Source: Octopus vulgaris (Eukaryota). From it: 64,000 nt of DNA. The notes under the pieces are model-generated. The model ran no database searches, had not been told where the DNA came from, and was given only the letters and a program-made list of their open reading frames with translations. The stretch lies in assembly GCA_951406725.2 (NCBI GenBank), contig OX597840.1, positions 32,984,001 to 33,048,000 on the forward strand, written 5' to 3'. The position numbers and the translations under genes are program-made. Every line of letters begins with the position of its first letter. Position 1 is the first letter of the stretch. Below, piece by piece: positions 1 through 57,244 of this stretch.

Positions 1-105
1 TTTCAACAACACTATTTCAGACAAAAAACTCACGTTTCGTTTTTGAGAATCAATGAATAAGTCAAAGTGACGTCCTGTCGGGTTCACGACTGCATAATGT
101 TGGGT
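1..105 (-). repeat. Second copy of the Tx1 element 5' end (direct repeat of 5294-5399), cut by the window edge
   Basis: 1-105 matches 5294-5399 except one A-run length difference and one substitution (caatgaataa vs caataaataa). Confidence 0.9.
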
Positions 106-356
106 GTTTTATTATTACCCACAAGGGGCCAACAAAGAGGGGACAATACAACCTGATGTGGGGTCAGATTCACGTATGAGGTTACAAAAGTATGAGTTTA
201 AAAATTTCAAAAATTCACAAAAATTGCAAAAATTATAAAAATCGAATGAGAAAAAACAGACCGGAAGACACTACAGGTGGAGTGGGGGCGGGTTCAGCTC
301 GGACCCCACGAGCCCCGCCTCACCACTGATACTTTTGGTTTCGTTTTGATCTACAT

Positions 357-3300
357 TTATGTGGTGTCATTCATTCTCAACTTCCGTGCTACATCCTTCC
401 ATCGTTCTTCATACACTCTTTTAGTCAGGCATTTTCTCTCCAGCCCTATCTTCCTTTTCAGGTGGTAGATGAAGTAATTCATCAACCCAGGGCCGGATAT
501 GAACTTGCCTGACCGTATACCTTTCATTCTCGTCTTCCATATCACCTCCTTCGCAATTGCTACCACAACGAGAAAACAAGTCTTACCTTCTTTCGCGAGG
601 AAATCTGGTGGGTCAATTTTTTTAATACACTCAGTCGACAGCTGTACTCTTCGTGTGCTTGACAACAGCTGTTCGGCATAAACCCACACCTCAGACACGT
701 CCGAACAATGAACAATAGCGTGCGGGACGGTTTCCCTATCCCGCCCGCATCTTGGACACATCGGACTGTCTTGGCCACCGTGCCTTGCGAGTTTATCCCG
801 AACAGGTAGAGCTCCTCTGTAGCATTGCCATGTCAGAGACTTCTGGAAGTTGTCCAGAGTCTTCGGCTCGAACGTACGTCGGAACAGACTAGCCAGCTGA
901 TTATCGTCGAGACCCAGGGTTTCCCCCAAGGTGTCTTCACATTCCGCCTCTACCAACCCTCTATAGAAGAATGTGGTGGAACCCCCACCGCAGGCGTTGC
1001 CCGAGCGACGGAATAGCAGGAGGGCCTTTCGACACTCCGTATACCATGTACCGAGTTTCGATCTACGATTCAACCAGGTTTCCCATCCACCGAAACTAGT
1101 GAACTTGGGAAACATCAGTTTTGCTAACGGAGACCACACCCGTTCACCATCCAGGTAGAGCCACAGATGTCTTAACCTCAGCGCATGTCTGCGCATCATC
1201 AGCCAAGGCATCCCTAGCCCACCCTTTAACGGTTGTTGACAGCAAGTAGAGCGTTTCACAAGTGGTTTCCTGCCCTTCCACAGGAAGTAGAAGAGCTGTC
1301 TTTCCAACTTGGTCAACCACGAATCAGGGCATGGAACGACGGAAAGGCGGTAGATGATAACCGATGCGATAAACACATTGGCCACCTCCGCCCTCCCTTT
1401 CAAGGATAGCCACCGCCTAGACCAGGTCTTGGCTACTGCAGCCACCTTGCTCGTTACCTCGCCCCAATTCTTCTCTATTTGGAGGTCTGGACCGAACCAG
1501 ACCCCTAGCAGTTTAATCGGACCCTCCGTCCAACGTCCCACGACGCTGTCAGGAGGCATCGACTTGCCTCTCCAGGTGCCGAGTTGCAAGCCGACTGACT
1601 TTTCGCGATTAACTTTTGCTCCTGTCACCGTCTCGTAATCCTCTATGGCCTTGCCTACTTTACATAGGTGGTCCATTTCGGTCACGATGATGGTGATGTC
1701 GTCCGCGTACGCTGACACTGATTTTCCATTACCTGGCTGTCTCGGGATGCCGCTCAGTTTTCGCAGTAATGGCTCAAGAGCCATCACGTACAAAAGCGGG
1801 GAGAGCGGACACCCTTGACGAACCGAGCGTTTGATTTTGAACGGCTTCGACAAGAAGCCGTTCACCCGAACTACCGAGTCGATGTTGTCGTAAATTTGGA
1901 TAATCCACCTGAGGAAGCCAAGGCCCAGTCCGAACTGTGCCAGAGCAGACACCAGGTAACGATGGTCGACCCTATCAAAAGCTTTGGATTGGTCTAAATG
2001 GACCAGTGCCCCACCCTTGCCAGAATCACTATTAAACCCCTCTATAGTGTACCGCATTAGATGGAGATTATCCTGAATGGTTCTGCCCGGAACGGCACAT
2101 GTCTGTGCCTCCCCGATCAGACCATCCGCGACACGCGCCAATCTTTTCGATAACACTTTGGCCAAAATCTTCAACTCTGTGTTTAGCAGAGTGATGGGCC
2201 TGAAATTATCAATGCACTCCCCCTTGCTCGGGTCCTTTCTGACGAGAGTCACCACTCCCCGGCGCACAGATCTGGGTATCAACCCGTTCTGCTGCCAGTT
2301 CGCATAGACTTCCGCCAGTAGGTGCCCGAACAAGTCTGGCATATTCTTATATAACTCGTAGGGTAGACCATCCAAACCCGGCGCCTTGCCCGCGCCGCAG
2401 TCCGCCATTGCCTCCACCACCTCCTCAGGCGTGATTGGCCCTTCACAGCCCTCCGCATCTCGCCCCGATAGGCGCGGCAGCCCGTCGAGTAGGTCCGTAA
2501 AGGCCCTCCTCCTATCCAGTCCGCCGCACTCACCGAAAAGCTGAGCGAAGTGCTCCTGAAAGGCCTCACACATCTCCTCGGGTTCGTCTATCAACTCACC
2601 TTGTTGGTTCTTCAAAGATCGAATCGTGGCATCGTTGCCATTCCGGGCTTCCACCACTCGGGCCCATCTCACGGCGTTGATTCCTTCACATCCCATATGA
2701 CGGATTCTAGCCCTGACAATGCAGCCCATGTGTTTGGCCTCGAGGTGCTGGTTTAACACCAGTCTCTTGGACGCCACCTGAGCCGCAGAGCCAGTTTTCA
2801 TGGCTTCCTCTAATTCCTTAACTAGAGTAGTTACCCTTCTAGCCTCTCTAGACACTACTCCTATGCTATATCTAATAGACTCAAACTTGATGGCTCGTTT
2901 GAGGGCGTACCACCATTTGTTATTAATGATGGCACCAGACAGCGCCCTCTGAATTATGGTCCTAATCCGGTCTCTGTACTCCTTAATCGCCAAAAGGGAC
3001 GTATTAAGTTTCCAGTAACCGGATCCTCTCTTTCTAACCTTATCTATGTCAAGCTTACAAGTGACCATTTTATGATCACTGTAGCTGATCGGGAAAAACT
3101 GTGGACGCTTAGCTATTTTACTGTCTACCTTTCTAATTAGAATTCTATCTATGTATGACCTGGAAGATCCGTCGCTGTTTGACCATGTCCACAATGGAGC
3201 GTTCGGAAATTCCAACCTATAAGGATCTGCTAGCTCAAAGCGGCTTAGCAGTTCCAGGAAGCATGTGTTACCTTTTCTATCATTCGAGCCAACACAATCT

Positions 3301-3752
3301 ACATCCGCTTTGCAAATTGTGTTAAAGTCTCCTAGCATAACTATTGAATGCGAAGTACCGAGAAAGTTCTCTAGATCACGATAATAATCACTTTGCCCAT
3401 TATTACTGCAGGGTGCGTAAATTGCAACCAGTCTGATAACTTTACCGTTACTGAACGTCAAATCCATGACGACCAGCCTACCTTCTGGGTCTGAAAAAAT
3501 TAACTTTTTCTCAAAAACCCGGTTTCTTTTTAGTAGGACCAACACCCCACTCCCGCCTGCAGGACTGCCAGGAGAGAAAAAACTCTCGTAGCCGTCAAAC
3601 AGTGGGAGTAGATCTCTTGGCCCCTTTAACCGGGTTTCTGTAGCAACAATAACATCCAAATTGCGCGACCTGATATCATTAAGGAAGCGACCTTGCTTCC
3701 CGCTTGATCCCAGGCCGCGCACATTTAAACAACCAACAGAAATGTAGTTCAT
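357..3752 (-). CDS. Tx1 ORF2 polyprotein: APE endonuclease, reverse transcriptase, C-terminal zinc finger
   Basis: APE motifs CLNVRGL, ETR, GDFN, YIDRIL, SDH; RT motifs APGLDG, FRPITLLN, DQSKAFDRV, RQGCPLSP, YADD (~1698-1709); CPRC...H...C finger; first ATG at 3752, no stops over ~1131 aa. Confidence 0.95.
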   Translation of the reverse strand: MNYISVGCLNVRGLGSSGKQGRFLNDIRSRNLDVIVATETRLKGPRDLLPLFDGYESFFSPGSPAGGSGVLVLLKRNRVFEKKLIFSDPEGRLVVMDLTFSNGKVIRLVAIYAPCSNNGQSDYYRDLENFLGTSHSIVMLGDFNTICKADVDCVGSNDRKGNTCFLELLSRFELADPYRLEFPNAPLWTWSNSDGSSRSYIDRILIRKVDSKIAKRPQFFPISYSDHKMVTCKLDIDKVRKRGSGYWKLNTSLLAIKEYRDRIRTIIQRALSGAIINNKWWYALKRAIKFESIRYSIGVVSREARRVTTLVKELEEAMKTGSAAQVASKRLVLNQHLEAKHMGCIVRARIRHMGCEGINAVRWARVVEARNGNDATIRSLKNQQGELIDEPEEMCEAFQEHFAQLFGECGGLDRRRAFTDLLDGLPRLSGRDAEGCEGPITPEEVVEAMADCGAGKAPGLDGLPYELYKNMPDLFGHLLAEVYANWQQNGLIPRSVRRGVVTLVRKDPSKGECIDNFRPITLLNTELKILAKVLSKRLARVADGLIGEAQTCAVPGRTIQDNLHLMRYTIEGFNSDSGKGGALVHLDQSKAFDRVDHRYLVSALAQFGLGLGFLRWIIQIYDNIDSVVRVNGFLSKPFKIKRSVRQGCPLSPLLYVMALEPLLRKLSGIPRQPGNGKSVSAYADDITIIVTEMDHLCKVGKAIEDYETVTGAKVNREKSVGLQLGTWRGKSMPPDSVVGRWTEGPIKLLGVWFGPDLQIEKNWGEVTSKVAAVAKTWSRRWLSLKGRAEVANVFIASVIIYRLSVVPCPDSWLTKLERQLFYFLWKGRKPLVKRSTCCQQPLKGGLGMPWLMMRRHALRLRHLWLYLDGERVWSPLAKLMFPKFTSFGGWETWLNRRSKLGTWYTECRKALLLFRRSGNACGGGSTTFFYRGLVEAECEDTLGETLGLDDNQLASLFRRTFEPKTLDNFQKSLTWQCYRGALPVRDKLARHGGQDSPMCPRCGRDRETVPHAIVHCSDVSEVWVYAEQLLSSTRRVQLSTECIKKIDPPDFLAKEGKTCFLVVVAIAKEVIWKTRMKGIRSGKFISGPGLMNYFIYHLKRKIGLERKCLTKRVYEERWKDVARKLRMNDTT

Positions 3753-5091
3753 CACTTACCTTATATCGGTAGTTTGGCTTTTTCGGCGGTTTCGCCTTCT
3801 TCTTCATTTTTTTTTCTTTGGCTCGTGGGGGAGTCCGACGTAGGCCCTCGTATAGATATGGAGACATGTCCAGTCTCAGAGGGCCCACGTCGTGGAAGAA
3901 CTCGGATTTTATCCTCCTGTAGTCCTTCCGGCCTATTTTATATATGATGAAGTCTTTCATCTTCCTTACACGTTCCACCTTGGCCATGGCTGCCAACACA
4001 TTGACAAGTCTGTTGTTAGTAGCCTTAATGGCCATAAATGAAGAAGTAACCTCTTTCCTTTTCTTTAGGTTTTCTTCTTCTTGAGGGGTGGTTTCAGTTT
4101 TCCGTTTTTTTTTGGTAACTTTAGACCACCCCTCCTCTTTTTCGTTTTCTTTTTCCTTTTCTGCAGCTTTTTCCACCTCTTTGGTTTCCTTTTTTTCCTC
4201 CGTTTCTTCTTTCTCCGACGGTTCTTCTGTCTGCGGTTTCGGTTGACACTCCGCTCTCACGTGCCCCTTCTTTCCGCAGCCGAAGCACCTCGGTTTTCTT
4301 CCTTCTACGAATACTAGAACTCGCTCCTCCTCATCTAGCCTCAGCACCTCTGGTATTTCTTCCAGAGTCTGGGCCTCTGCTTGTATAGCCATTGTTATGA
4401 TCTGGCCCTGCCAAAATCCCTCCTCCTCCACTGTAGCTTGGAGGATGTTGATTTTTTCTTTCAGGCCCAGCATCACTGCCGCCACCAGGCATGAGGCGTC
4501 TGCCTCTGGGGGAATATTTCTCATTACTATCTTTGAAGTCCTTCTTCCTTTGTACAAGGGTAGAAGGACTAGATTTCCCGCTTTCTGAGGTTCTGTGGAT
4601 AGCTTCTTAGCTATTTCTTCTGTTCTGAACCTCACTTCTACTGTTCCGAACCGTCTTCCTCTATTGATGTAAGTGATATCTTTTCTGATTGTCTTCAGGC
4701 ACTCCTCTATTTTGCATTCTTCCACTTTTTGTATGCTTTTTGTAGTCGTGCTGTATGTCTTGTATATAATTCTTTTCTTTTCTATCTCTTCCTTTTTTTC
4801 CATATCTTTTTTCACTGCAATTTCATTTCCTTCTTTCTTTAGAAGGTCTTCATATTTCTCTAGGTTTTCTATATCTATATCTTTCTGTTTGCGTCCAACA
4901 ACTTCCGCAAACTTCTTTGTTGGGGCCTTTTGTTCTGGCGTTACCGCCGATTCTTTTTCCGGTGTCACCGCCGGCGTGCTTCTCTCACCCGAGGTTTGAG
5001 ATTCTTCATCACCTGAAATGGGTGAATAGGTAATGGGGAAATCCATTTCGAATTTTCCTTCCAGTTTGTATTCACTGCCTTCCAAAGACAT
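3679..5091 (-). CDS. Tx1 ORF1 gag-like nucleic-acid-binding protein with CCHC zinc knuckle
   Basis: CFGCGKKGHVRAEC knuckle, K/E-rich segments, GWSKVTKKKRK; likely start MSLEG at 5091, downstream of the 5'UTR A-run. Confidence 0.85.
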   Translation of the reverse strand: MSLEGSEYKLEGKFEMDFPITYSPISGDEESQTSGERSTPAVTPEKESAVTPEQKAPTKKFAEVVGRKQKDIDIENLEKYEDLLKKEGNEIAVKKDMEKKEEIEKKRIIYKTYSTTTKSIQKVEECKIEECLKTIRKDITYINRGRRFGTVEVRFRTEEIAKKLSTEPQKAGNLVLLPLYKGRRTSKIVMRNIPPEADASCLVAAVMLGLKEKINILQATVEEEGFWQGQIITMAIQAEAQTLEEIPEVLRLDEEERVLVFVEGRKPRCFGCGKKGHVRAECQPKPQTEEPSEKEETEEKKETKEVEKAAEKEKENEKEEGWSKVTKKKRKTETTPQEEENLKKRKEVTSSFMAIKATNNRLVNVLAAMAKVERVRKMKDFIIYKIGRKDYRRIKSEFFHDVGPLRLDMSPYLYEGLRRTPPRAKEKKMKKKAKPPKKPNYRYKVSDELHFCWLFKCARPGIKREARSLP

Positions 5092-5564
5092 TCTGGCTTT
5101 GCAGCCGTTAGTAGAAAATATTTTTTTTTTTTTTTTTTTTTTTTTGTTTTTTGAATGTGTTTCGTACACGAAGGCACACAATAATTCCCCCACGGGGGGG
5201 AACTACGTACACAACCTTCGCGCGAAGGCCACTAACCGTCTTATTAAAAGACACAAAATAACAATATTAACACAGCAACAATAAACTACTAACTTTCAAC
5301 AACACTATTTCAGACAAAAAAACTCACGTTTCGTTTTTGAGAATCAATAAATAAGTCAAAGTGACGTCCTGTCGGGTTCACGACTGCATAATGTTGGGTT
5401 CTGCATTTTTTTTTTCAAGAGGATTCCACGTTTAAATAAGAAATGAAAATCATTTAAGTTAATCATGCAATTTTGGGAATATTCCATTTTTTACTGATAT
5501 ATACTACAATAACAAAGAAATTATTTAAGATTTTAGATTTATGCATAAGTATTCTTATGGTTCC

Positions 5565-5948: not shown

Positions 5949-8653
5949 TTTAGTATTGGCAACATGAATGACAATGGCCAGAGACTACTTGAATTTTGCA
6001 CATACCATAACCTGTGCATCACCAACACATTCTTTCCCAACAAGACATCCCACAAGGCATCTTGGAGACATCCAAGATCTCACCACTGGCATCAGTTGGA
6101 TCTCATCATTACACGAAGATCCTTTCTGAATTCTGTTCAACTGACCCGTAGCGCGGATTGTGACACAGATCATTCACTAATAAGAAGGGTGAGGATTCTG
6201 CCTAAAAAGTCCATCACTCCAAGAAAATGAGCCAACCACGCATTAACACTGCCAGAACCTCGGACCCTACACTGCGACAATGTTTTGCTGTTTCTATCAA
6301 GGTTGCCCTCAGTAGCTGCCCAACCTCCTCTGCTGAAAGTAGGAGGAATTATATCAGGGAAGCTTTGTATACCACATCAATAGATACTTTCGGAATGAGA
6401 GAAAGGTAAAACCCAGATTTTGTTCAGTACTGGGCTCTCAGAGCTGGAAACAGTTATCGAAGCAAAGCGTGCAGCTCTGATGCAATACAAGAGTGTTTCT
6501 TCTACAACGTCACTCGAAGAACTCAGAAAGGCAAGAAATAAAACCCAACTCACTGTCAGACGCTGTGCAAATGGGTATTGACAGGAAATCTGTCAGAGTA
6601 TCCAGTCAGCTGCTGACAGTGGTGACACCCGTGGGATGTATGCCGGTTTGAAGAAGGCCCTCGGTCCATCCGCAACCACCTCAGCCCCTCTGAAATCAAC
6701 TACTGGAGATCTCATCAAGGACCAAAGCAAGCAAAAGGATACATGGATGGAGTACTACCAGAATCCCTACACACGAGAGGTAGTTGAGGCTGCAATCGAG
6801 GGTGTCAAGATCTTGCCAGTCATGTGTGAACTTGACAGTCTGCCATCTATAGCAGAGCTCACCAAATCTATTGACTCCCTAGCAAGTAACAAGGCTCCGG
6901 GGAAAGACGGCATCCCCTTAGAGATCATCAAAACCGGCAAAAATACCATCTTGCTTCGGCACATTCATGAGCTTCTGTGTCAGTGCTGGTAAGAGGGTAC
7001 AGTCCCTCAGAATATGCGGGATGCTAACATCATTACGCTTTACAAAAATAAAAGCGACCGTGATGATTGTAACAATTACCGTGGAATATCTCTTCTAAGC
7101 ACAGTTGGAAAGGCCTCTGCTCGCATTATCCTGTCCAGGCTGCTTCTCGAATTTATCCAGAATCGCAGTGTGGCTTTAGAAGCAGATCAACTATTGACAT
7201 GATATTCTCCATACGCCAACTTCAGAAGTCCAGAGAGCAGAACATGCCATTATATATGGCCTTCATTGATCTGACAAAGGGCTTTGACTTGGTAAGTAGA
7301 AAAGGCCTCTTCATCCTGCTCCAAAAATCGGATGTCCACCAAAGCTGCTGAGGATCATCAAATCATTCCATGCTAATATGCAAGGCACCATACAGCACAA
7401 TGGTTCAACATCAGCCGCCTTCCAAATAAAAAATGGGGTAGAGCAAGGTTGTGTCCTTGCTCCTACATTATTTGGCATCTTCTTCTCGCTGCTGCTGTCA
7501 CATGCCTTTGAGACATGACATCAGATGATGCAGTGTTTCTGCACAGTAGAAGTGATGGGAAACTGTTTAATCTCTCGCGTCTGCGTGCCAAGACCAAAAT
7601 CTCAGAAGCGTCCTGATCAAGGAGATGCTATTTGCTGATGATGCCGCTCTGGTATCACACACAGAAGAAGCCCTACGAAGGCTCAGCAACTGTTTTGAGC
7701 AAGCATTTGGCAACTTTGGCTTAGTTATCAGCCTCAAGAATACCAACATCATGGGTCAGGCTACATCGGACATCCCAAACATACATATTGGAGACCACAG
7801 AGTATAGGAGGTGGAGAAGTTTACCTATCTTGGCTCTACCGTCACCTACAAACTATCCCTTGATGCTGAGCTCAATATACGCATTGGCAAGGCAGCTGCT
7901 GTGATGGCACAACTCACCAAACGCGCATGGGACAACAATAAGCTGACCAAGACCACAAAAATGAAGATTTACCAGGCACTCTACTGTATGACTTTGACGC
8001 CATACACACGCCATACGACGCCATACACACGCCATACGACGCCATACGTCGCCTAAATATCTTTCACTTGCGCTGTCTCCGGAAAATCCATCGCATCAAA
8101 TGGCAGAATCATGTCCCTAACAAAGATGTCCTCAAGCAAGCAGGAATACCAAGCATGTTTGCACTCTTCACACAAAGACGTATGAGATCGCTTGGACATG
8201 TAAGCCGTATGGAAGATGGCAGAATCCCCAAGGACATACTCAACGGAGAGCTTGCTAGGGGCACTAGGTCTGTGGGAAGACCGTTCTTACGATACAAGGA
8301 TGTTTGCAAAAGGGACATGAATGCCTGCAACATCAATATTACCAACTGGGAAGCAGTTGCCAGCAACCCTGGAGATTGGCGATGTATCGTAAAAGAGGGA
8401 ACACAAAGGAGTGACATAGTGAGAAAGGAGAAATGGAAAGACAAGAAAAGACGTCAACAAAAAACTATGACATTAAGACCAGTCAGGCAAAGTCTTCGCT
8501 ACATTTACGGCACCTGCCAGAGGGAGTGTTTGTCCCGGATAGGACTACACAGCCACAGCAAGAGATGTATTAGGACATGAAATGTAAAAGCCGGACTAGA
8601 TTATTTTATGCGCAACTCCATTGTCTCCTGAGACAAAAAGGATGCCAACAACA
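5949..8653 (+). mobile_element. 5'-truncated, decayed RTE-clade (BovB-like) LINE
   Basis: Broken ORF pieces: NGQRLLEFC..WRHPRS.HWHQLD (APE), KAPGKDGIP, NYRGISLLS, LFADD, FTYLGS, C-terminal C..C..SRIGLHSH; 3' end gtctcctgagacaaaaaggatgcc(aac)n; 78-bp flanking direct repeat. Confidence 0.92.
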
Positions 8654-10976: not shown

Positions 10977-11207
10977 TATTTCTTTTGCTACCCACAAGGG
11001 GCTAAACATAGAGGGGACAAACAAGGACAGACAAACGGATTAAGTCGATTACATCGACCCAGTGCGAAACTGGTACTTTATTTATCGACCCCGAGAGGAT
11101 GAAAGGCAAAGCCGACCTCGGCGGAATTTGAACTCAGAACGTAGCGGCAGACGAAATACTGCTAAGCATTTCACCCGGCGTGCTAACGCTTCTGCCAGCT
11201 CGCCGCC
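10977..11207 (-). mobile_element. SINE-B (tRNA-derived) full copy with Tx1-like tail
   Basis: Head ggcggcgagctggcaga, B-box gagttcaaattcc, tail gtcccctctatgtttagccccttgtgggta..aaagaaata running into (TA)n. Confidence 0.85.
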
Positions 11208-16059: not shown

Positions 16060-16742
16060 AGAATATGCTTCAACACACGAATTCATATAAAGAATCTTGC
16101 AAACCAAATTTATTTCAGACTTCTTTCAGTTTCCATCAATCAAATCCACTCACAAGGCTTTGATCATCCCGAAGCTATAGCAGAAGAATCTTGCCCAAGT
16201 TCCCATGTAGTTGCGAAGCGAACTTCTTAACCACGCAGCCACTCCTACCACGCTTACCACGTCTACAAACACAAAGACACACTTGAGTTTGTTTATTTCC
16301 CCCCACCACCGCCCGACAACCGGTGTTATCCCCGAAACTTAGCGCTTCGACAAAAGGAGAGACTGATAGTATCAGTACTAGCCCTAAAAATTAACTACTG
16401 GGTCGATTTGTTCGATTAAACTATTTAAGACGGTGGTGTTTCAGCATGGCTGCAGTCCAATGACTGAAACCGGTATAAGATAAAAGAAAAAAGATGGCCG
16501 CTGTTCGGGATTTTCAGTTGAAATATGAACGGTTTGCATCTTCTAACATTTTATCTATTTTCTGGGTCTGGCGAAAAGGGGGCAGTACCCTCACATAGAT
16601 TTAGTCGGCCCTTCGAGATCAGAATCGTTAAGACTATCACATAAATTGTTGCTAGTTGACCATTGCAAGACAGAAATACCTTAACGTGGACATCAACTCT
16701 CAAATGAGACGCAGGATACCATCGTGACATGCGGCATGAGTA

Positions 16743-17455
16743 GGCGCAGGAGTGGCTGTGTGGTAAGTAGCTTGCTTACCAACCACATGGTTCCGGGTTC
16801 AGTCCCGCTACGTGGCACCTTGGGCAAGTGTCTTCTACTATAGCCTCGGGCCGACCAAAGCCTTGCGAGTGGATTTGGTAGATGGAAACGGAAAGAAGCC
16901 CGTCGTATATATGTATATTTATATGTATGTATTTGTGCTCCCTCCAACATCGCTTGACAACCGATACTGGTGTGCTTACGCCCCCGTAACTTAGCAGTTC
17001 AGCAAAAGTAACCGATAGAATAAGTACTAGGCTTACAAAGAGTAAAGTCCTAGGCGCAGAAGTGGCTGTGTGGTAAGTAGCTTGTCTATCAACCACATGG
17101 TTCCGGGTTCAGTCCCGCTACGTGGCACCTTGGGCAAGTGTCTTCTACTATAGCCTCGGGCCGACCAAAGCCTTGTGAGTGGATTTGGTAGATGGAAACG
17201 GAAAGAAGCCCGTCGTATATATGTATATTTATATGTATGTATTTGTGCTCCCTCCAACATCGCTTGACAACCGATACTGGTGTGCTTACGCCCCCGTAAC
17301 TTAGCAGTTCAGCAAAAGTAACCGATAGAATAAGTACTAGGCTTACAAAGAGTAAAGTCCTGGGGGTCGATTTGCTCGACTTAAGGCGGTGCTCCAGCAT
17401 GGCCACAGTCACATGACTGATACAAGTAAAAGAGACAAAGAATAAAAGAGTAAAA
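16743..17455 (+). mobile_element. SINE-A tandem dimer (tRNA head, CORE-like ccttgggcaag, internal microsatellite, tail gactgaaacaagtaaaagag); 310-bp duplication
   Basis: Units start at 16743 and 17053 and are near-identical; A-box-like tggctgtgtggt and B-box-like ggttcagtccc. Confidence 0.9.
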
Positions 17456-18268: not shown

Positions 18269-18594
18269 GGCGGCGAGCTGGCAGAAATATTAGCATGCCG
18301 GGCGAAATGCTTTGTGGTATTTCGTCCGCCACTGCGTAGTAAGTTCAAATTCCGTCGAGGTCGACTTTGCCTTTCATCCCTTCGGAGTCGATAAATTAAG
18401 AACTAGTTACGCACTAGGGTCGATGTAATCGATTTAATCCCTTTGTCTGTCCTTGTTTGTCCCCTCTATGTTTAGCCCCTTGTGAGCAATAAAGAAAAAA
18501 GAAACGTTAGCACGCCGGGCGAAATGCTTTGTGGTATTTCGTCCGCCACTGCGTAGTGAGTTCAAATTCCGCCGAGGTCGACTTTGCCTTTCAT
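18269..18594 (+). mobile_element. SINE-B full copy followed by a partial second unit
   Basis: Head at 18269, Tx1-like tail ending ~18497, second head fragment 18499-18594. Confidence 0.85.
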
Positions 18595-18599
18595 GATGT

Positions 18600-19140
18600 A
18601 AAGGGGCAAGCAGATAAGGTTTATCCATGGAAAGAAAAGCCTACGGAAAAGACCACAGTAATCTCGGTCAATAATGTCACATGTTAACACATTTATTTGC
18701 AAGTAACTCTGTTTTAAATTTTTCCGGGTTCATAGGATCATGCTCAAGGTGGCTTCGTCATTCATACGTGCCATCCTTGCTACATTCACCCATCTTTTTT
18801 TGAAACATTCGCTAGACAAAACTTGCCTCTCTACTCTCACTTTCCTTTTCAAGTGGTACTTGAAGAAGTTGATGAGAGATTGACCAGAGAGGAAAGTGTT
18901 TGTCTCTAATCCTTTCAGACGCGTCCGCCAGATACATTCTTTCGCCATAGCCACAAGTATGATGAAAATAGCTCTTCCTTCCCGTTTGAAGGAAGGAGGC
19001 GTGACAACATTGACGATAGACTCGGCTGATAAACCGACACGTCCCACACGAGAGAGCAGTCGTTCGACATAAGCCCACAGGTCGGAAATGGTTGGACACT
19101 GCACGAGTGCGTGCAGAACGGTTTCGTCGCTCTGACCGCA
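18600..19140 (-). mobile_element. 3' fragment of a second Tx1-type family (ORF2 zinc finger, C-terminus and part of the 3'UTR)
   Basis: CGQSDETVLHALVQC...LINFFKYHLKRK...KKRWVNVARMARMND aligns with the C-terminus of the intact ORF2. Confidence 0.88.
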
Positions 19141-19291
19141 AAGCTACACCAATACACCAAATATCAAATCAATTGGAACAAAAACTGAAGAAATTGAGAA
19201 GTGGCAGCCAAATAGAAAAGACCTAAATCCTTCGAGGTGGTGCTCCAGCATGGCTGCAGTCTAATGACTGAAACAAATTAAAGAATAAAAG

Positions 19292-22259: not shown

Positions 22260-23435
22260 AATTATTGTATACAGTGCTCAGGTGCACCACAACTTTTCAA
22301 AAGTGCGTATAAAGTATATGCAGTAATGTACAAATGTCTGGGATGTGAATAGTGTATGAGTCAGATACATGCTTGTGTGTGTATGGAGGGGAGAAAGATC
22401 AGGTGTAGCGTTGGCGAATCTCAGGAAGCATGGAAGTTTTAAAGGATGCAGTGCTCCGACAACTAACAACTCAACTGATGCCGGCAGTTTGTTCCATGCT
22501 TCAGCGTGTGTATGGAGGGGAGAAAATCAGGTGTAGTGTTGGCGAATCTCAGGAAGCATGGAAGTTTTGAAGGATGCAGTGCTCCGACAACTAACAACTC
22601 AACTGATGCCGGCAGTTTGTTCCATGCTTCAGCGTGTGTATGGAGGGGAGAAAATCAGGTGTAGTGTTGGCGAATCTCAGGAAGCATGGAAGTTTTGAAG
22701 GATGCAGTGCTCCGACAACTAACAACTCAACTGATGCCGGCAGTTTGTTCCATGCTTCAGCGTGTGTATGGAGGGGAGAAAATCAGGTGTAGTGTTGGCG
22801 AATCTCAGGAAGCATGGAAGTTTTGAAGGATGCAGTGCTCCGACAACTAACAACTCAACTGATGCCGGCAGTTTGTTCCATGCTTCAGCGTGTGTATGGA
22901 GGGGAGAAAATCAGGTGTAGTGTTGGCGAATCTCAGGAAGCATGGAAGTTTTGAAGGATGCAGTGCTCCGACAACTAACAACTCAACTGATGCCGGCAGT
23001 TTGTTCCATGCTTCAGCGTGTGTATGGAGGGGAGAAAATCAGGTGTAGTGTTGGCGAATCTCAGGAAGCATGGAAGTTTTGAAGGATGCAGTGCTCCGAC
23101 AACTAACAACTCAACTGATGCCGGCAGTTTGTTCCATGCTTCAGCGTGTGTATGGAGGGGAGAAAATCAGGTGTAGCGTTGGCGAATCTCAGGAAGCATG
23201 GAAGTTTTGAAGGATGCAGTGCTCCGACAACTAACAACTCAACTGATGCCGGCAGTTTGTTCCATGCTTCAGCGTGTGTATGGAGGGGAGAAAATCAGGT
23301 GTAGCGTTGGCGAATCTCAGCAAGCATGGAAGTTTTAAAGGATGCAGTGCTCCGACAACTAACAACTCAACTGATGCCGGCAGTTTGTTCCATGCTTCAG
23401 CAACTCTCAGCGGGAAAAAAATGTTTCCTAAAGTC
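22241..23435 (-). mobile_element. CR1/L2-group LINE 3' fragment with (ATT)n tail
   Basis: FFPLRVAEAWNKLP C-terminal motif, 3' hairpin gtgcacctgagcac, (ATT)n tail at ~22241-22260. Confidence 0.8.
22377..23401. repeat. Tandem array, 8 x 128 bp, inside the CR1 fragment
   Basis: Unit starts at 22377, 22506, 22634, 22762, 22890, 23018, 23146, 23274; near-identical. Confidence 0.95.
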
Positions 23436-24143: not shown

Positions 24144-24404
24144 TATATATATATTTTATTCTCTTACTTGTTTCAGTGATTTGATTGCGGCCATGGTGGA
24201 GCACTGCCTGAAGGGGTTTTAGTCGAACAAATCCACAAGTGGAACTTATCCTTTGTAAGCCTAGCACTTATTCTATCAGTGTCTTTTGCAAAACCGCTAA
24301 GTTTCGAGGACGTAAACATACCAACAACGGTTGTCAAGTGATGGTGGAGGATCTGTTTATTAGCGAAGTCTCATTCAGAGGTTAAACATAAATAAATCTT
24401 GGTA

Positions 24405-24940
24405 GGCGGTGAGATGGCAGAATCGTTAGCACGCCGGACGAAATGTTTAACGGTATTTCGTCTGCCGTTACGTTCTGAGTTCAAATTCCGCCGAGATCGA
24501 CTTTGCCTTTCATCCTTTCGGGGTCGATTAAATAAATACCAGTTACTCACTGAGGTCGATATAATCGACTTAATCCGTTTGTCTGTCCTTGTTTGTCCCC
24601 TCTATGTGTAGCCCCTTGTGGGTAGTAAAGAAATAGGTATTTCGTCAGCCGTTACGTTCTGAGTTCAAATTCCGCCGAGGTCGACTTTGCTTTTCATCCT
24701 TTCGGGGTCGATTAAATAAGTACCAGTTACGCACTGGAGTCGATATAATGGACTTAATCCGTTTGTCTGTCCTTGCTTGTCCTCTCAGTGTTTAGCCCCT
24801 TGTGGGTAGTAAAGAAATAGGTATTTCGTCTGCCGTTACGTTCCAAGTTCAAATACCGCCGAGGTCGACTTTTCCTTTCTGGGTCGATAAATTAAGTACC
24901 AGCCAAGTACTGGGGTCGATATAATCGACTGGCCACCTCC
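24405..24940 (+). mobile_element. SINE-B head-to-tail trimer
   Basis: Junctions gaaata|ggtatttcgtc at 24635/36 and 24819/20. Confidence 0.88.
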
Positions 24941-25123
24941 ACAGAGAGTAAAAAATAATACATAAATAAATCTTGGTATTAAATGGGTTTTGAATTCTCT
25001 CGTCATCAGCGAAAAATACAATAAGAAAATAAATTAGATACTTACTTGTACCCATGGAAGAATTAAACATTAAAGTCATGTATACACTTAAGTACCCCAA
25101 ATATATCCAAAATAGAAATAAGT

Positions 25124-41570: not shown

Positions 41571-41968
41571 TTATAGCTTGTATATGCACGACATCAGGTG
41601 AGTGGCTTTGAGAGCACTATTGGATCACGTATACTTTCCCATTGTTTTTCACACACACACACATATATATCTCACGTGATAACGTGGCCGACCATGCTAT
41701 CAGATGTTGCTACATATCGCTAGTCACAATGCGCTTCGCATTGTTTTAGCCACCCCGCTGGCTAAGCGAGCAGGCCAACAGAAGAAAGAGAGAAAGATAT
41801 TTTTACTATAAGACTTAAATTTCTCCGTGGTCGACTTTGCCTTTCAACCTTTCGGGGTCGATAAAGTAAGTATCAGCTGAACACTAGTATACCCCCCCAG
41901 CCCCACCCCACCCCACGCTGCCCTTTTAGCAAAAATTTGAAATTATTATTATTATAAGATACTTGTAA

Positions 41969-42553
41969 GGTTGTGGGCTGGCTAAGTCGTTAGCACGCCG
42001 GGCGAAGTGCTTTGTATTTCGTCTGCCGCTATGTTCTGAGTTCAAATTCTGCCGAGGTCGACTTTGCCTTTCATCCTTTCGGGGTCGATTAAGTAAGTAC
42101 CAGTTACCTACTGGGGTCGATGTAATCGACTTAATCCGTTTGTCTGTCCTTGTTTGTCCTCTCTGTGTTTAGCCCCTTGTGGGTAGTAAAGAAATAGGTA
42201 TTTTGTCTGTCGCTAGGTTCTGAGCTCAAATTTCGCTCAGGTCTACTTTGCTTTTCATTCTTTTGGGGGGTCGATATATTAAGTACCAGTTACGCACTGG
42301 GGTCGATATAATCGACTTAATCCGTTTGTCTGTCCCTGTTTGTCCTCTCTGCGTTTAGCCCCTTGTGGGTATTAAAGAAATAGGTATTTCGTCTGCCGCT
42401 ACGTTCTGAGCTCAAATTCCGCTCAGGTCGACTTTGCTTTTCATTTTTTCGGGGTGTCGATTAAATAAGTACCAGTTACGCACTGGGGTCGATGTAATCG
42501 ATTTAATATCTCCTCCTAAAATGACAGGCCTTGTGCTTACACTAGAAAGGATT
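41969..42553 (+). mobile_element. SINE-B head-to-tail trimer; last unit has an alternative tail
   Basis: Junctions gaaata|ggtattt at 42196/97 and 42382/83; terminal ggccttgtgcttacactagaaaggatta. Confidence 0.88.
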
Positions 42554-42900
42554 ATATGACACTCCCCGCAAGAATTCATCAAATTCACGTGATTTCACGT
42601 CGTCATCATCATCACGTGAATTCACGTAAATTCATGGAATTCGTGAGAATTTTTTTAATTCAGAACCGCTACGATTGTTTCGACTGATCACGCACCTGCA
42701 CTTTACTGGTGAAATGTTACACGTTACATTAGCATGCATAAATATGTAAGCGCGTGTATTTGTATGTGCGTCTGTGCATTTTACGTGTTTGTATGTTTCT
42801 CTGTGTGTATGTGCGTGAAAGAGAGCGAGTGAGAGGAAGAGGAAGAGAGGGGAAAGAGAGCGAGAGAGAAAGAGAGATGTATATATATATATATATATAT

Positions 42901-56850: not shown

Positions 56851-57244
<394 letters not shown>

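Follow-up and report, generated by a model that had tools for sequence, protein, structure and literature searches.

The closest described counterpart of the arrays reported here comes from crocodilians, where SINEU and Tx1-Mar were described together and the SINE prefers fixed positions within another repeat (parts of Kojima 2015, PMC4494074; this and the other comparisons below draw on parts of the papers cited). Melanogaster-type R1 elements in 28S rDNA make a fixed first-strand cut and a top-strand cut 14 bp downstream, which yields a target duplication; an upstream cut followed by annealing of the cDNA to homologous target sequence has been proposed to yield precise joints (Stage and Eickbush 2009, PMC2718515). 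When R2 RNA carries upstream 28S sequence, a heteroduplex of cDNA and target is envisaged, and 5′ joints are mostly uniform (Eickbush et al. 2013, PMC3774820). Tandem dimers of transposable elements can seed satellites, with insertion preference making the dimers and local expansion following (McGurk and Barbash 2018, PMC5932611), and pieces of SINEs are able to form tandem arrays (Vassetzky et al. 2023, PMC10702118).

Here, we analyze a 64,000-nucleotide stretch of Octopus vulgaris DNA (contig OX597840.1, positions 32,984,001 to 33,048,000; hereafter the window), together with related loci across the genome. An earlier, sequence-only reading of the window had posited that SINEs with a Tx1-like tail were repeatedly inserted at one site in the head of older family members. 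The core of this idea survives, in that insertion occurs at one base and the hosts are older than the inserts, but local duplication also lengthens the arrays, and fewer than half of the tails (49 of 127) lie at that base. The account that we consider probable is that a young Tx1-tailed SINE is pasted between positions 48 and 49 of older relatives by a borrowed Tx1-type enzyme, is joined seamlessly, and is then lengthened locally.

SINE arrays in the window

The repeated element is short (about 230 nt), non-coding, high-copy, dispersed, and accompanied by target duplications, as expected of a SINE; outer duplications were found in 32 of 74 solo tail-A copies against 0.5% in the control. SINE-B, A, B1, B2, and C (the last four for tail types) are working labels. 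Octopus SINEs named OK, OR1, and OR2 were reportedly described by Ohshima and Okada in 1994. From A- and B-box-like motifs only, identified by eye, the head may derive from a tRNA; ARAGORN found no tRNA gene in the window, and Rfam returned no match at E<=5 for one young copy. The tail resembles the 3′ end of the LINE present in the window (87.8% identity over 41 nt, E 1e-6).

Table 1. Repeat features of the window (window coordinates)
Feature	Position	Strand	Remark
Trimer 1, left copy of the perfect 19-bp target duplication around the whole trimer	24386..24404	+	Exact match to 24960-24978
Trimer 1, single SINE head, A-box-like part	24405..24451	+	
Trimer 1, unit 1, body and Tx1-like tail (type A)	24452..24635	+	
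Trimer 1, unit 2, headless body and tail A	24636..24819	+	
Trimer 1, unit 3, headless body and partly deleted B1-like tail	24820..24959	+	
Trimer 1, right copy of the 19-bp target duplication	24960..24978	+	
Trimer 2, head plus tail-A unit 1	41969..42196	+	
Trimer 2, unit 2 with tail A	42197..42382	+	
Trimer 2, unit 3 with older B2-type tail	42383..42556	+	End approximate
SINE dimer joined at head position 16	18269..18594	+	Junction 18499/18500
Solo full-length tail-A SINE copy	10977..11207	-	Followed by TATA
Intact two-ORF LINE, putatively L1/Tx1-type, with related 3′ tail	105..5399	-	
3′ fragment of a second, putatively Tx1-type family	18595..19143	-	48% identity to the first over 128 aa

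Two trimers with four identical junctions had been reported, and both are present, the first ending at 24959 and the second at about 42556 (Table 1). The joints read GAAATA/GGTATTT, with the first G at 24636, 24820, 42197, and 42383; units recur with a period of 184-186 nt, and a head of about 48 nt stands on the first unit only. That internal units carry the Tx1-like tail and the last unit does not is true of both window trimers but often fails genome-wide, where the last unit is Tx1-like-tailed in 21 of 36 unbiased arrays. The small inverted repeat seen at the junction does not hold up as a structure, its fold being no better than those of shuffled sequences (z 0.00 and 0.07). Recognition of a DNA hairpin or cruciform was rejected as unsupported: shuffled sequences fold as well as the head and the junction do (z -0.45 to 0.07).

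The duplication that encloses trimer 1 likely records the host copy's own insertion, and unit 3 would be the remainder of that host. Unit 2 has no rare variant in common with unit 1 or 3 in the variant comparison and may thus be an independent insertion. In trimer 2, the 5′ half of unit 2 has four rare variants and a 2-nt insertion in common with unit 3, so the junction between these units was probably generated by a local, out-of-register duplication; a possible decayed outer duplication matches by eye in 10 of 12 letters (41952-41963 and 42552-42563). Three of the four window junctions are probably independent. The dimer, noted earlier as having a different junction at about 18498, indeed differs, but its joint falls at a recurrent second site, head position 16, used by 11 of 127 tails; its units have 8 non-majority letters in common, and the dimer is a local copy or a product of the same template. 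In contigs from six DNA-type sequencing runs, other copies dominate and no piece spans the locus.

Generic repeat finding in the window is dominated by microsatellites. Other repeats there include a perfect, TA-rich 167-nt inverted repeat with no spacer (56851-57184), which may be an artefact of assembly, a 128-nt unit in eight 99%-identical copies (22377-23401), and another SINE-like repeat that forms a 310-nt tandem pair (16741-17361).

A preferred base in the SINE head

The exact 29-nt junction (tail followed by GGTATTT) occurs in 22,077 copies across the 2.8-Gb genome and its reversed control in none; exact tails number 77,568. Destinations were counted in an unbiased sample of 1.07 Mb, fetched regardless of motif, with the window included, and weighted to small contigs; most array loci considered further below come from motif-selected searches, many on one contig. 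In the sample, unit starts peak at positions 1, 16, and 49. The anticipated enrichment of one sequence 3′ of the tails is observed, with 49 of 127 tails at the GGTATTT site of position 49; 11 lead to position 16, 4 to the antisense GGTACTT of the same SINE, 17 to other GGTA words, 7 to other GG, 14 to TATA, and 25 elsewhere. Solo copies had been thought to end in (TA)n, a view at odds with these data: TATA follows only those 14 tails, and in solos a target duplication that begins with GG or GGTA is the more frequent situation. The 49 joints lie in 33 arrays, to be set against 43 solo tail-A copies in the same sample.

The position-49 site takes 49 of the 70 tails with a GGTA-type start in the sample but accounts for 91 of 5,244 GGTA words and 91 of 264 GGTATTT words there. 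The preference for this site is therefore strong, if not exclusive, and it is greater than a 4- or 7-letter motif explains. Kojima regards a retroelement as target-specific when one flank type is found in >20% of copies (as given in parts of PMC4494074), a share that is exceeded by 49 of 127 tails at one base. The antisense GGTACTT of the same SINE is used as well (in 4 of its 189 occurrences, compared with 17 among some 4,960 other GGTA words), and such landings in relatives may point to tethering at SINE loci. Beyond the 4 of 127 tails in the sample, antisense landings were seen at L185, L198, L204, and L209 (4 of 30 loci). The joint at head position 16 (tail/AGAAACG) is enriched with the GCAAT tail variant, and one array contains five such joints (L061:722-2030). 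G-start targets stand after 46 of 65 GTAGT tails and after 2 of 15 GCAAT tails (p=6e-5), a difference that favors an effect of the tail or its partner on targeting.

The LINE in the window carries a tail related to that of the SINE, as do other LINE families. The ORF2 of the window LINE encodes an AP-type endonuclease, a reverse transcriptase, and a C-terminal zinc domain, the structural hallmarks of Tx1, and its best-scoring family-named match among 27 is "Transposon TX1 uncharacterized 149 kDa protein" (31% identity, E 6e-90); domains and match together suggest a Tx1-type element. The second family represented in the window is young and abundant (150 of 150 scored matches at at least 96% identity) and ends in (TATC)n in 29 of 30 loci (L352-L380), an example of the target specificity that other Tx1-type families show here. 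The expectation that 3′ ends of Tx1 LINEs would share the GGTATTT base was not borne out in the loci covered: position 49 was occupied in 0 of 20 loci of the window LINE's family, in 0 of 30 loci of the second family, and by no LINE-type tail among 40 pattern matches, two of many LINE families having been followed. In a further set of matches, the tails resembled variants of the SINE tail. Among the 40 pattern matches, five LINE-type tails lie about 13 nt upstream of position 49 in the SINE head, and one was verified as a decayed Tx1-type LINE at about position 35 (L381, G000:C4:43699101-43700250) that is 79% identical to the window LINE over 104 aa. Position 35 or thereabouts is a third insertion site in the same 50-nt head.

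The window LINE itself ends a head-to-tail train with seven tail matches about 5,290 nt apart (G000:C27:32952359-32984130), the aligned copies of which are 99.5-99.8% identical; similar trains occur on C22, C30, and C58, among 49 tail matches. Broken reading frames at window positions 6582-8580 (+) belong to another LINE, which by its appearance we take to be RTE-like.

Hosts, inserts, and the growth of arrays

A second SINE head 6-19 nt after GGTATTT gives 356 exact matches genome-wide. Among 30 such two-head loci viewed, 19 follow a SINE head, 7 an earlier tail junction, and 4 other DNA; most consist of a full-length tailed copy, then a duplicated stretch and the rest of the host, with a spacer of 14-17 nt in 20 of 30. 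Letters private to the host recur in both copies of the duplicated stretch (e.g., L215, L222, and L223). For this two-head minority, which is absent from the 36 unbiased arrays, insertion into existing family copies is directly shown. In solo copies, the upstream (host) copy of the duplication begins with G, G, T, A, and T in 18, 19, 27, 26, and 25 of 36 pairs; this and the other duplication comparisons exclude the elements with no detectable duplication (66 of 107).

Host copies are older than inserts. Divergence from the element's own type is 5.4% for A, 14% for B2, and 15% for C, while B1 copies diverge by 7.8% as last units and 10.9% as solos, a difference that counts against the insertion model; units in front of the last one diverge by 4-7%. 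The proposed comparison of internal and terminal units thus came out as expected, terminal units being up to three times more diverged than those in front of them. Outer duplications mismatch in 20 of 227 letters around B1-ended arrays and in 36 of 809 around tail-A elements (p=0.019), a comparison confined to the 14 of 33 B1-ended arrays in which a duplication is detectable, the other 19 being left out. Old types mostly carry GGCATTT in place of GGTATTT (C, 20 of 26; B2, 10 of 18), and few of them serve as hosts (B2, 1 of 23; C, 0 of 24) compared with B1 (5 of 13) and A (21 of 64). The GGCATTT variant is found in 31 two-head matches, against 356 at GGTATTT, and in 966 tail joints. Old hosts make up 8 of 18 typed two-head arrays and 4 of 85 one-head arrays (p=6e-5); this comparison omits last units with unclassified tails (22 one-head, 4 two-head) and loci L261-L320, and elements at locus edges and duplicates were dropped.

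The two-head loci also bear on whether RNA rather than the enzyme picks the site, through a transcript that runs past the tail into GGUAUUU and pairs with the nicked target. R1 transcripts have been proposed to carry 3′ flank (in the parts of PMC2718515 considered), the dependence of G-start targets on the tail variant is compatible with such pairing, and some last units start young-type and end old-type (L026 and L308). Among readable two-head inserts with GGCATTT upstream, T stands at the 3′ junction of 8 loci and C at that of 9 (by eye), but a rough estimate suggests that the 8 T cases are about what later T-to-C changes of the upstream copy would yield among 356 T-type inserts. Nor is overwriting by RNA seen in 28 pairs that are neither microsatellite nor motif-selected (L181-L240 left out), where 7 mismatches favor the motif in the 3′ copy and 6 favor it in the 5′ copy, and long pairing would be impossible at the antisense GGTACTT sites that are also used. 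RNA-guided aiming is not supported, and we regard it as rather unlikely.

Most arrays have one head and no internal duplication. If the duplication had been retained but hidden, host positions 49-63 should reappear in unit 1; this prediction failed (4 of 25 variants shared, against 0.12 expected), and the model of seamless joining was revised afterwards to an upstream cut. Position 51 is T in the first unit in 8 of 8 B2/C hosts and C in the last unit in 5 of those. In one-head arrays, heads in B1 hosts are no older than tail-A heads, and those in B2/C hosts are intermediate. Since unit 1 lacks the host 49-63 stretch and heads are new-type, the crossover would lie upstream, within the head. We infer that one-head arrays are joined seamlessly through the matching head, much as described for R1 and R2; the concentration of the two-head form in old hosts is expected if homology favors such joining.

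The same concentration in diverged hosts could arise if every insert were at first two-headed, with a duplication, and a tandem head of about 63 nt were later lost by slippage or single-strand annealing, an alternative that touches only the joining of heads (step 3 below). Slippage is active in arrays, and heads in 8 B2/C hosts resemble the host at the far end and the new type close to the junction. Collapse, however, would have had to remove almost every second head, as none of 36 unbiased arrays has two, while 184-nt units persist; and in B1 hosts, most of the head's length is new-type. We consider this route unlikely and retain seamless joining.

Local copying accounts for many of the further units. 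The share of adjacent tail-A pairs with at least 2 rare variants in common is 11 of 44 in dimers, 22 of 64 in trimers, and 37 of 69 in longer arrays, compared with 1.8% of random pairs, so the pattern that the sequence-only reading had named as contrary to its own proposal, units closer within a locus than to units elsewhere, is partly present. In A-ended arrays of at least three units, the last unit and its neighbor share variants mainly at the 5′ side (18 of 39 at 67-100; 3 of 38 at 201-232) and the first unit mainly at the 3′ side (3 of 39 at 49-66; 13 of 27 at 201-232), biases that argue for out-of-register duplication. Because of local duplication, joint counts overstate the number of insertion events. 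Long homogeneous arrays, such as G000:C5:135573288-135575656 (14 joints) and L034:4072-6072 (11 units), are on the way to satellites.

Could entire arrays descend from one or a few multimeric masters, or be purely local satellites? Long arrays are homogeneous (mean adjacent distance 0.049 vs 0.10 for random pairs), and one 14-junction array carries the same rare tail variant throughout. Yet there are four kinds of last unit, of different ages, and at most one rare variant is common to any of the 9 cross-trimer pairs in the window, which rules out the single multimeric master; local duplication, moreover, is unable to place the same base at thousands of unlinked loci or to produce duplications that start with GGTATTT. 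As a sole cause, masters or satellites are refuted by the two-head inserts and the ages of last units and seem to us extremely improbable; local duplication is kept as a secondary step.

Units could also be joined as RNA or cDNA, by a template jump at the hairpin loop between positions 48 and 49 or by ligation of cut RNAs, such that the whole array inserts at once. In the RNA, a 13-bp hairpin (z -1.6 and -2.2) passes from loop to stem exactly where the junction falls, and most heads are of the new type. Outer duplications of A-A dimers and of solos are of about the same young age, and the units of these dimers are often related (a rare variant is common to both in 24 of 44, against 17% of random pairs), although whole-dimer copying would also give such relatedness, as RNA-level joining would. 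This process is unable to make two-head inserts with host-private duplications, to set last units of 14-15% divergence behind units of 4-7%, or to explain older outer duplications. It may contribute to A-ended arrays only, and as a general explanation we judge it quite improbable. At L014:1287-1568, a 22-nt duplication with one mismatch encloses a head and one tailed unit, followed by no more than 29 nt of a second, reflecting either read-through RNA or a tailless host.

We favor, then, insertion into older relatives, which would likely proceed by target-primed reverse transcription with a borrowed Tx1-type enzyme. The first-strand junction would be fixed before GGTATTT, as is directly observed, with non-SINE targets also tending to start with GG or GGTA (step 1). 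In a minority, the outcome seen is a full-length, two-headed insert whose target duplication measures at most about 15 bp (step 2); in the presumed majority, head cDNA would pair with host head sequence on the upstream side of the nick, and the array would end up with a single, mostly new-type head and without a duplication (step 3). The resulting tail/GGTATTT junction could be used again as a target, as observed loci demonstrate (step 4), and many further units would be added by local copying, of which out-of-register sharing of variants is the visible trace (step 5). Our best guess on site choice is that the endonuclease prefers GGTA(T) and that completion at a higher rate, where cDNA and target are homologous, multiplies this preference. 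More tentatively, and with our doubts outweighing our confidence, we suggest that the SINE is self-homing: a match between cDNA and target would complete integration far more often in relatives, and each event would replace a decayed promoter head with a fresh one. If so, tens of thousands of old loci have been rejuvenated as new sources and re-usable landing pads, and several Tx1-type LINEs would use these pads too, with cuts at different bases of the 50-nt head.

Relation to other targeted retroelements

The freely accessible papers searched yielded no SINE that targets its own family at a fixed base, and the parts covered of two cephalopod repeat papers make no mention of a self-targeting SINE (PMC13282606, PMC8967140); the repeat library of the former may hold these multimers. 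Self-targeting is a real variant of Tx1-type targeted SINE insertion. It closes a loop in which the passenger provides the landing pads, and it offers a route from SINE to satellite. Replacement of heads can distort both subfamily ages and chimeric consensus models in such genomes. The joints, at least 22,077 of them, constitute a very large natural record of non-LTR 5′ end joining, a step that the R2 papers call poorly understood. The R2 endonuclease is restriction-like; with the octopus arrays, second-strand priming assisted by homology can be tested directly for an AP-type endonuclease.

Like this SINE, SINEU is likely mobilized by target-specific Tx1 LINEs, forms tandem copies by sequential insertion, and shows preferences that range from weak (13-23%) to strong (90%), with two preferred target regions; unlike it, SINEU targets a Mariner DNA transposon instead of its own family, and its tandem copies sandwich a target duplication, whereas most joints here are seamless and headless (parts of PMC4494074). 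R1 likewise builds tandem arrays by re-insertion, and its two joint outcomes match ours, but R1 is an autonomous LINE in an rRNA gene, and its homology to the target comes from co-transcribed host sequence rather than from the element's kinship with the target (parts of PMC2718515). R2 resembles the octopus SINE in that tandem duplications are a minority outcome (about 5% in one beetle lineage) and differs in having a single strict target and no SINE (parts of PMC3774820). In the Drosophila dimers, tail-to-internal joints vary in position (parts of PMC5932611), whereas in the octopus at least 22,077 joints fall at one base. Across the papers cited, targeted Tx1-type systems home in on RNA genes, microsatellites, and DNA transposons; in the octopus, the main single target is the SINE's own family.
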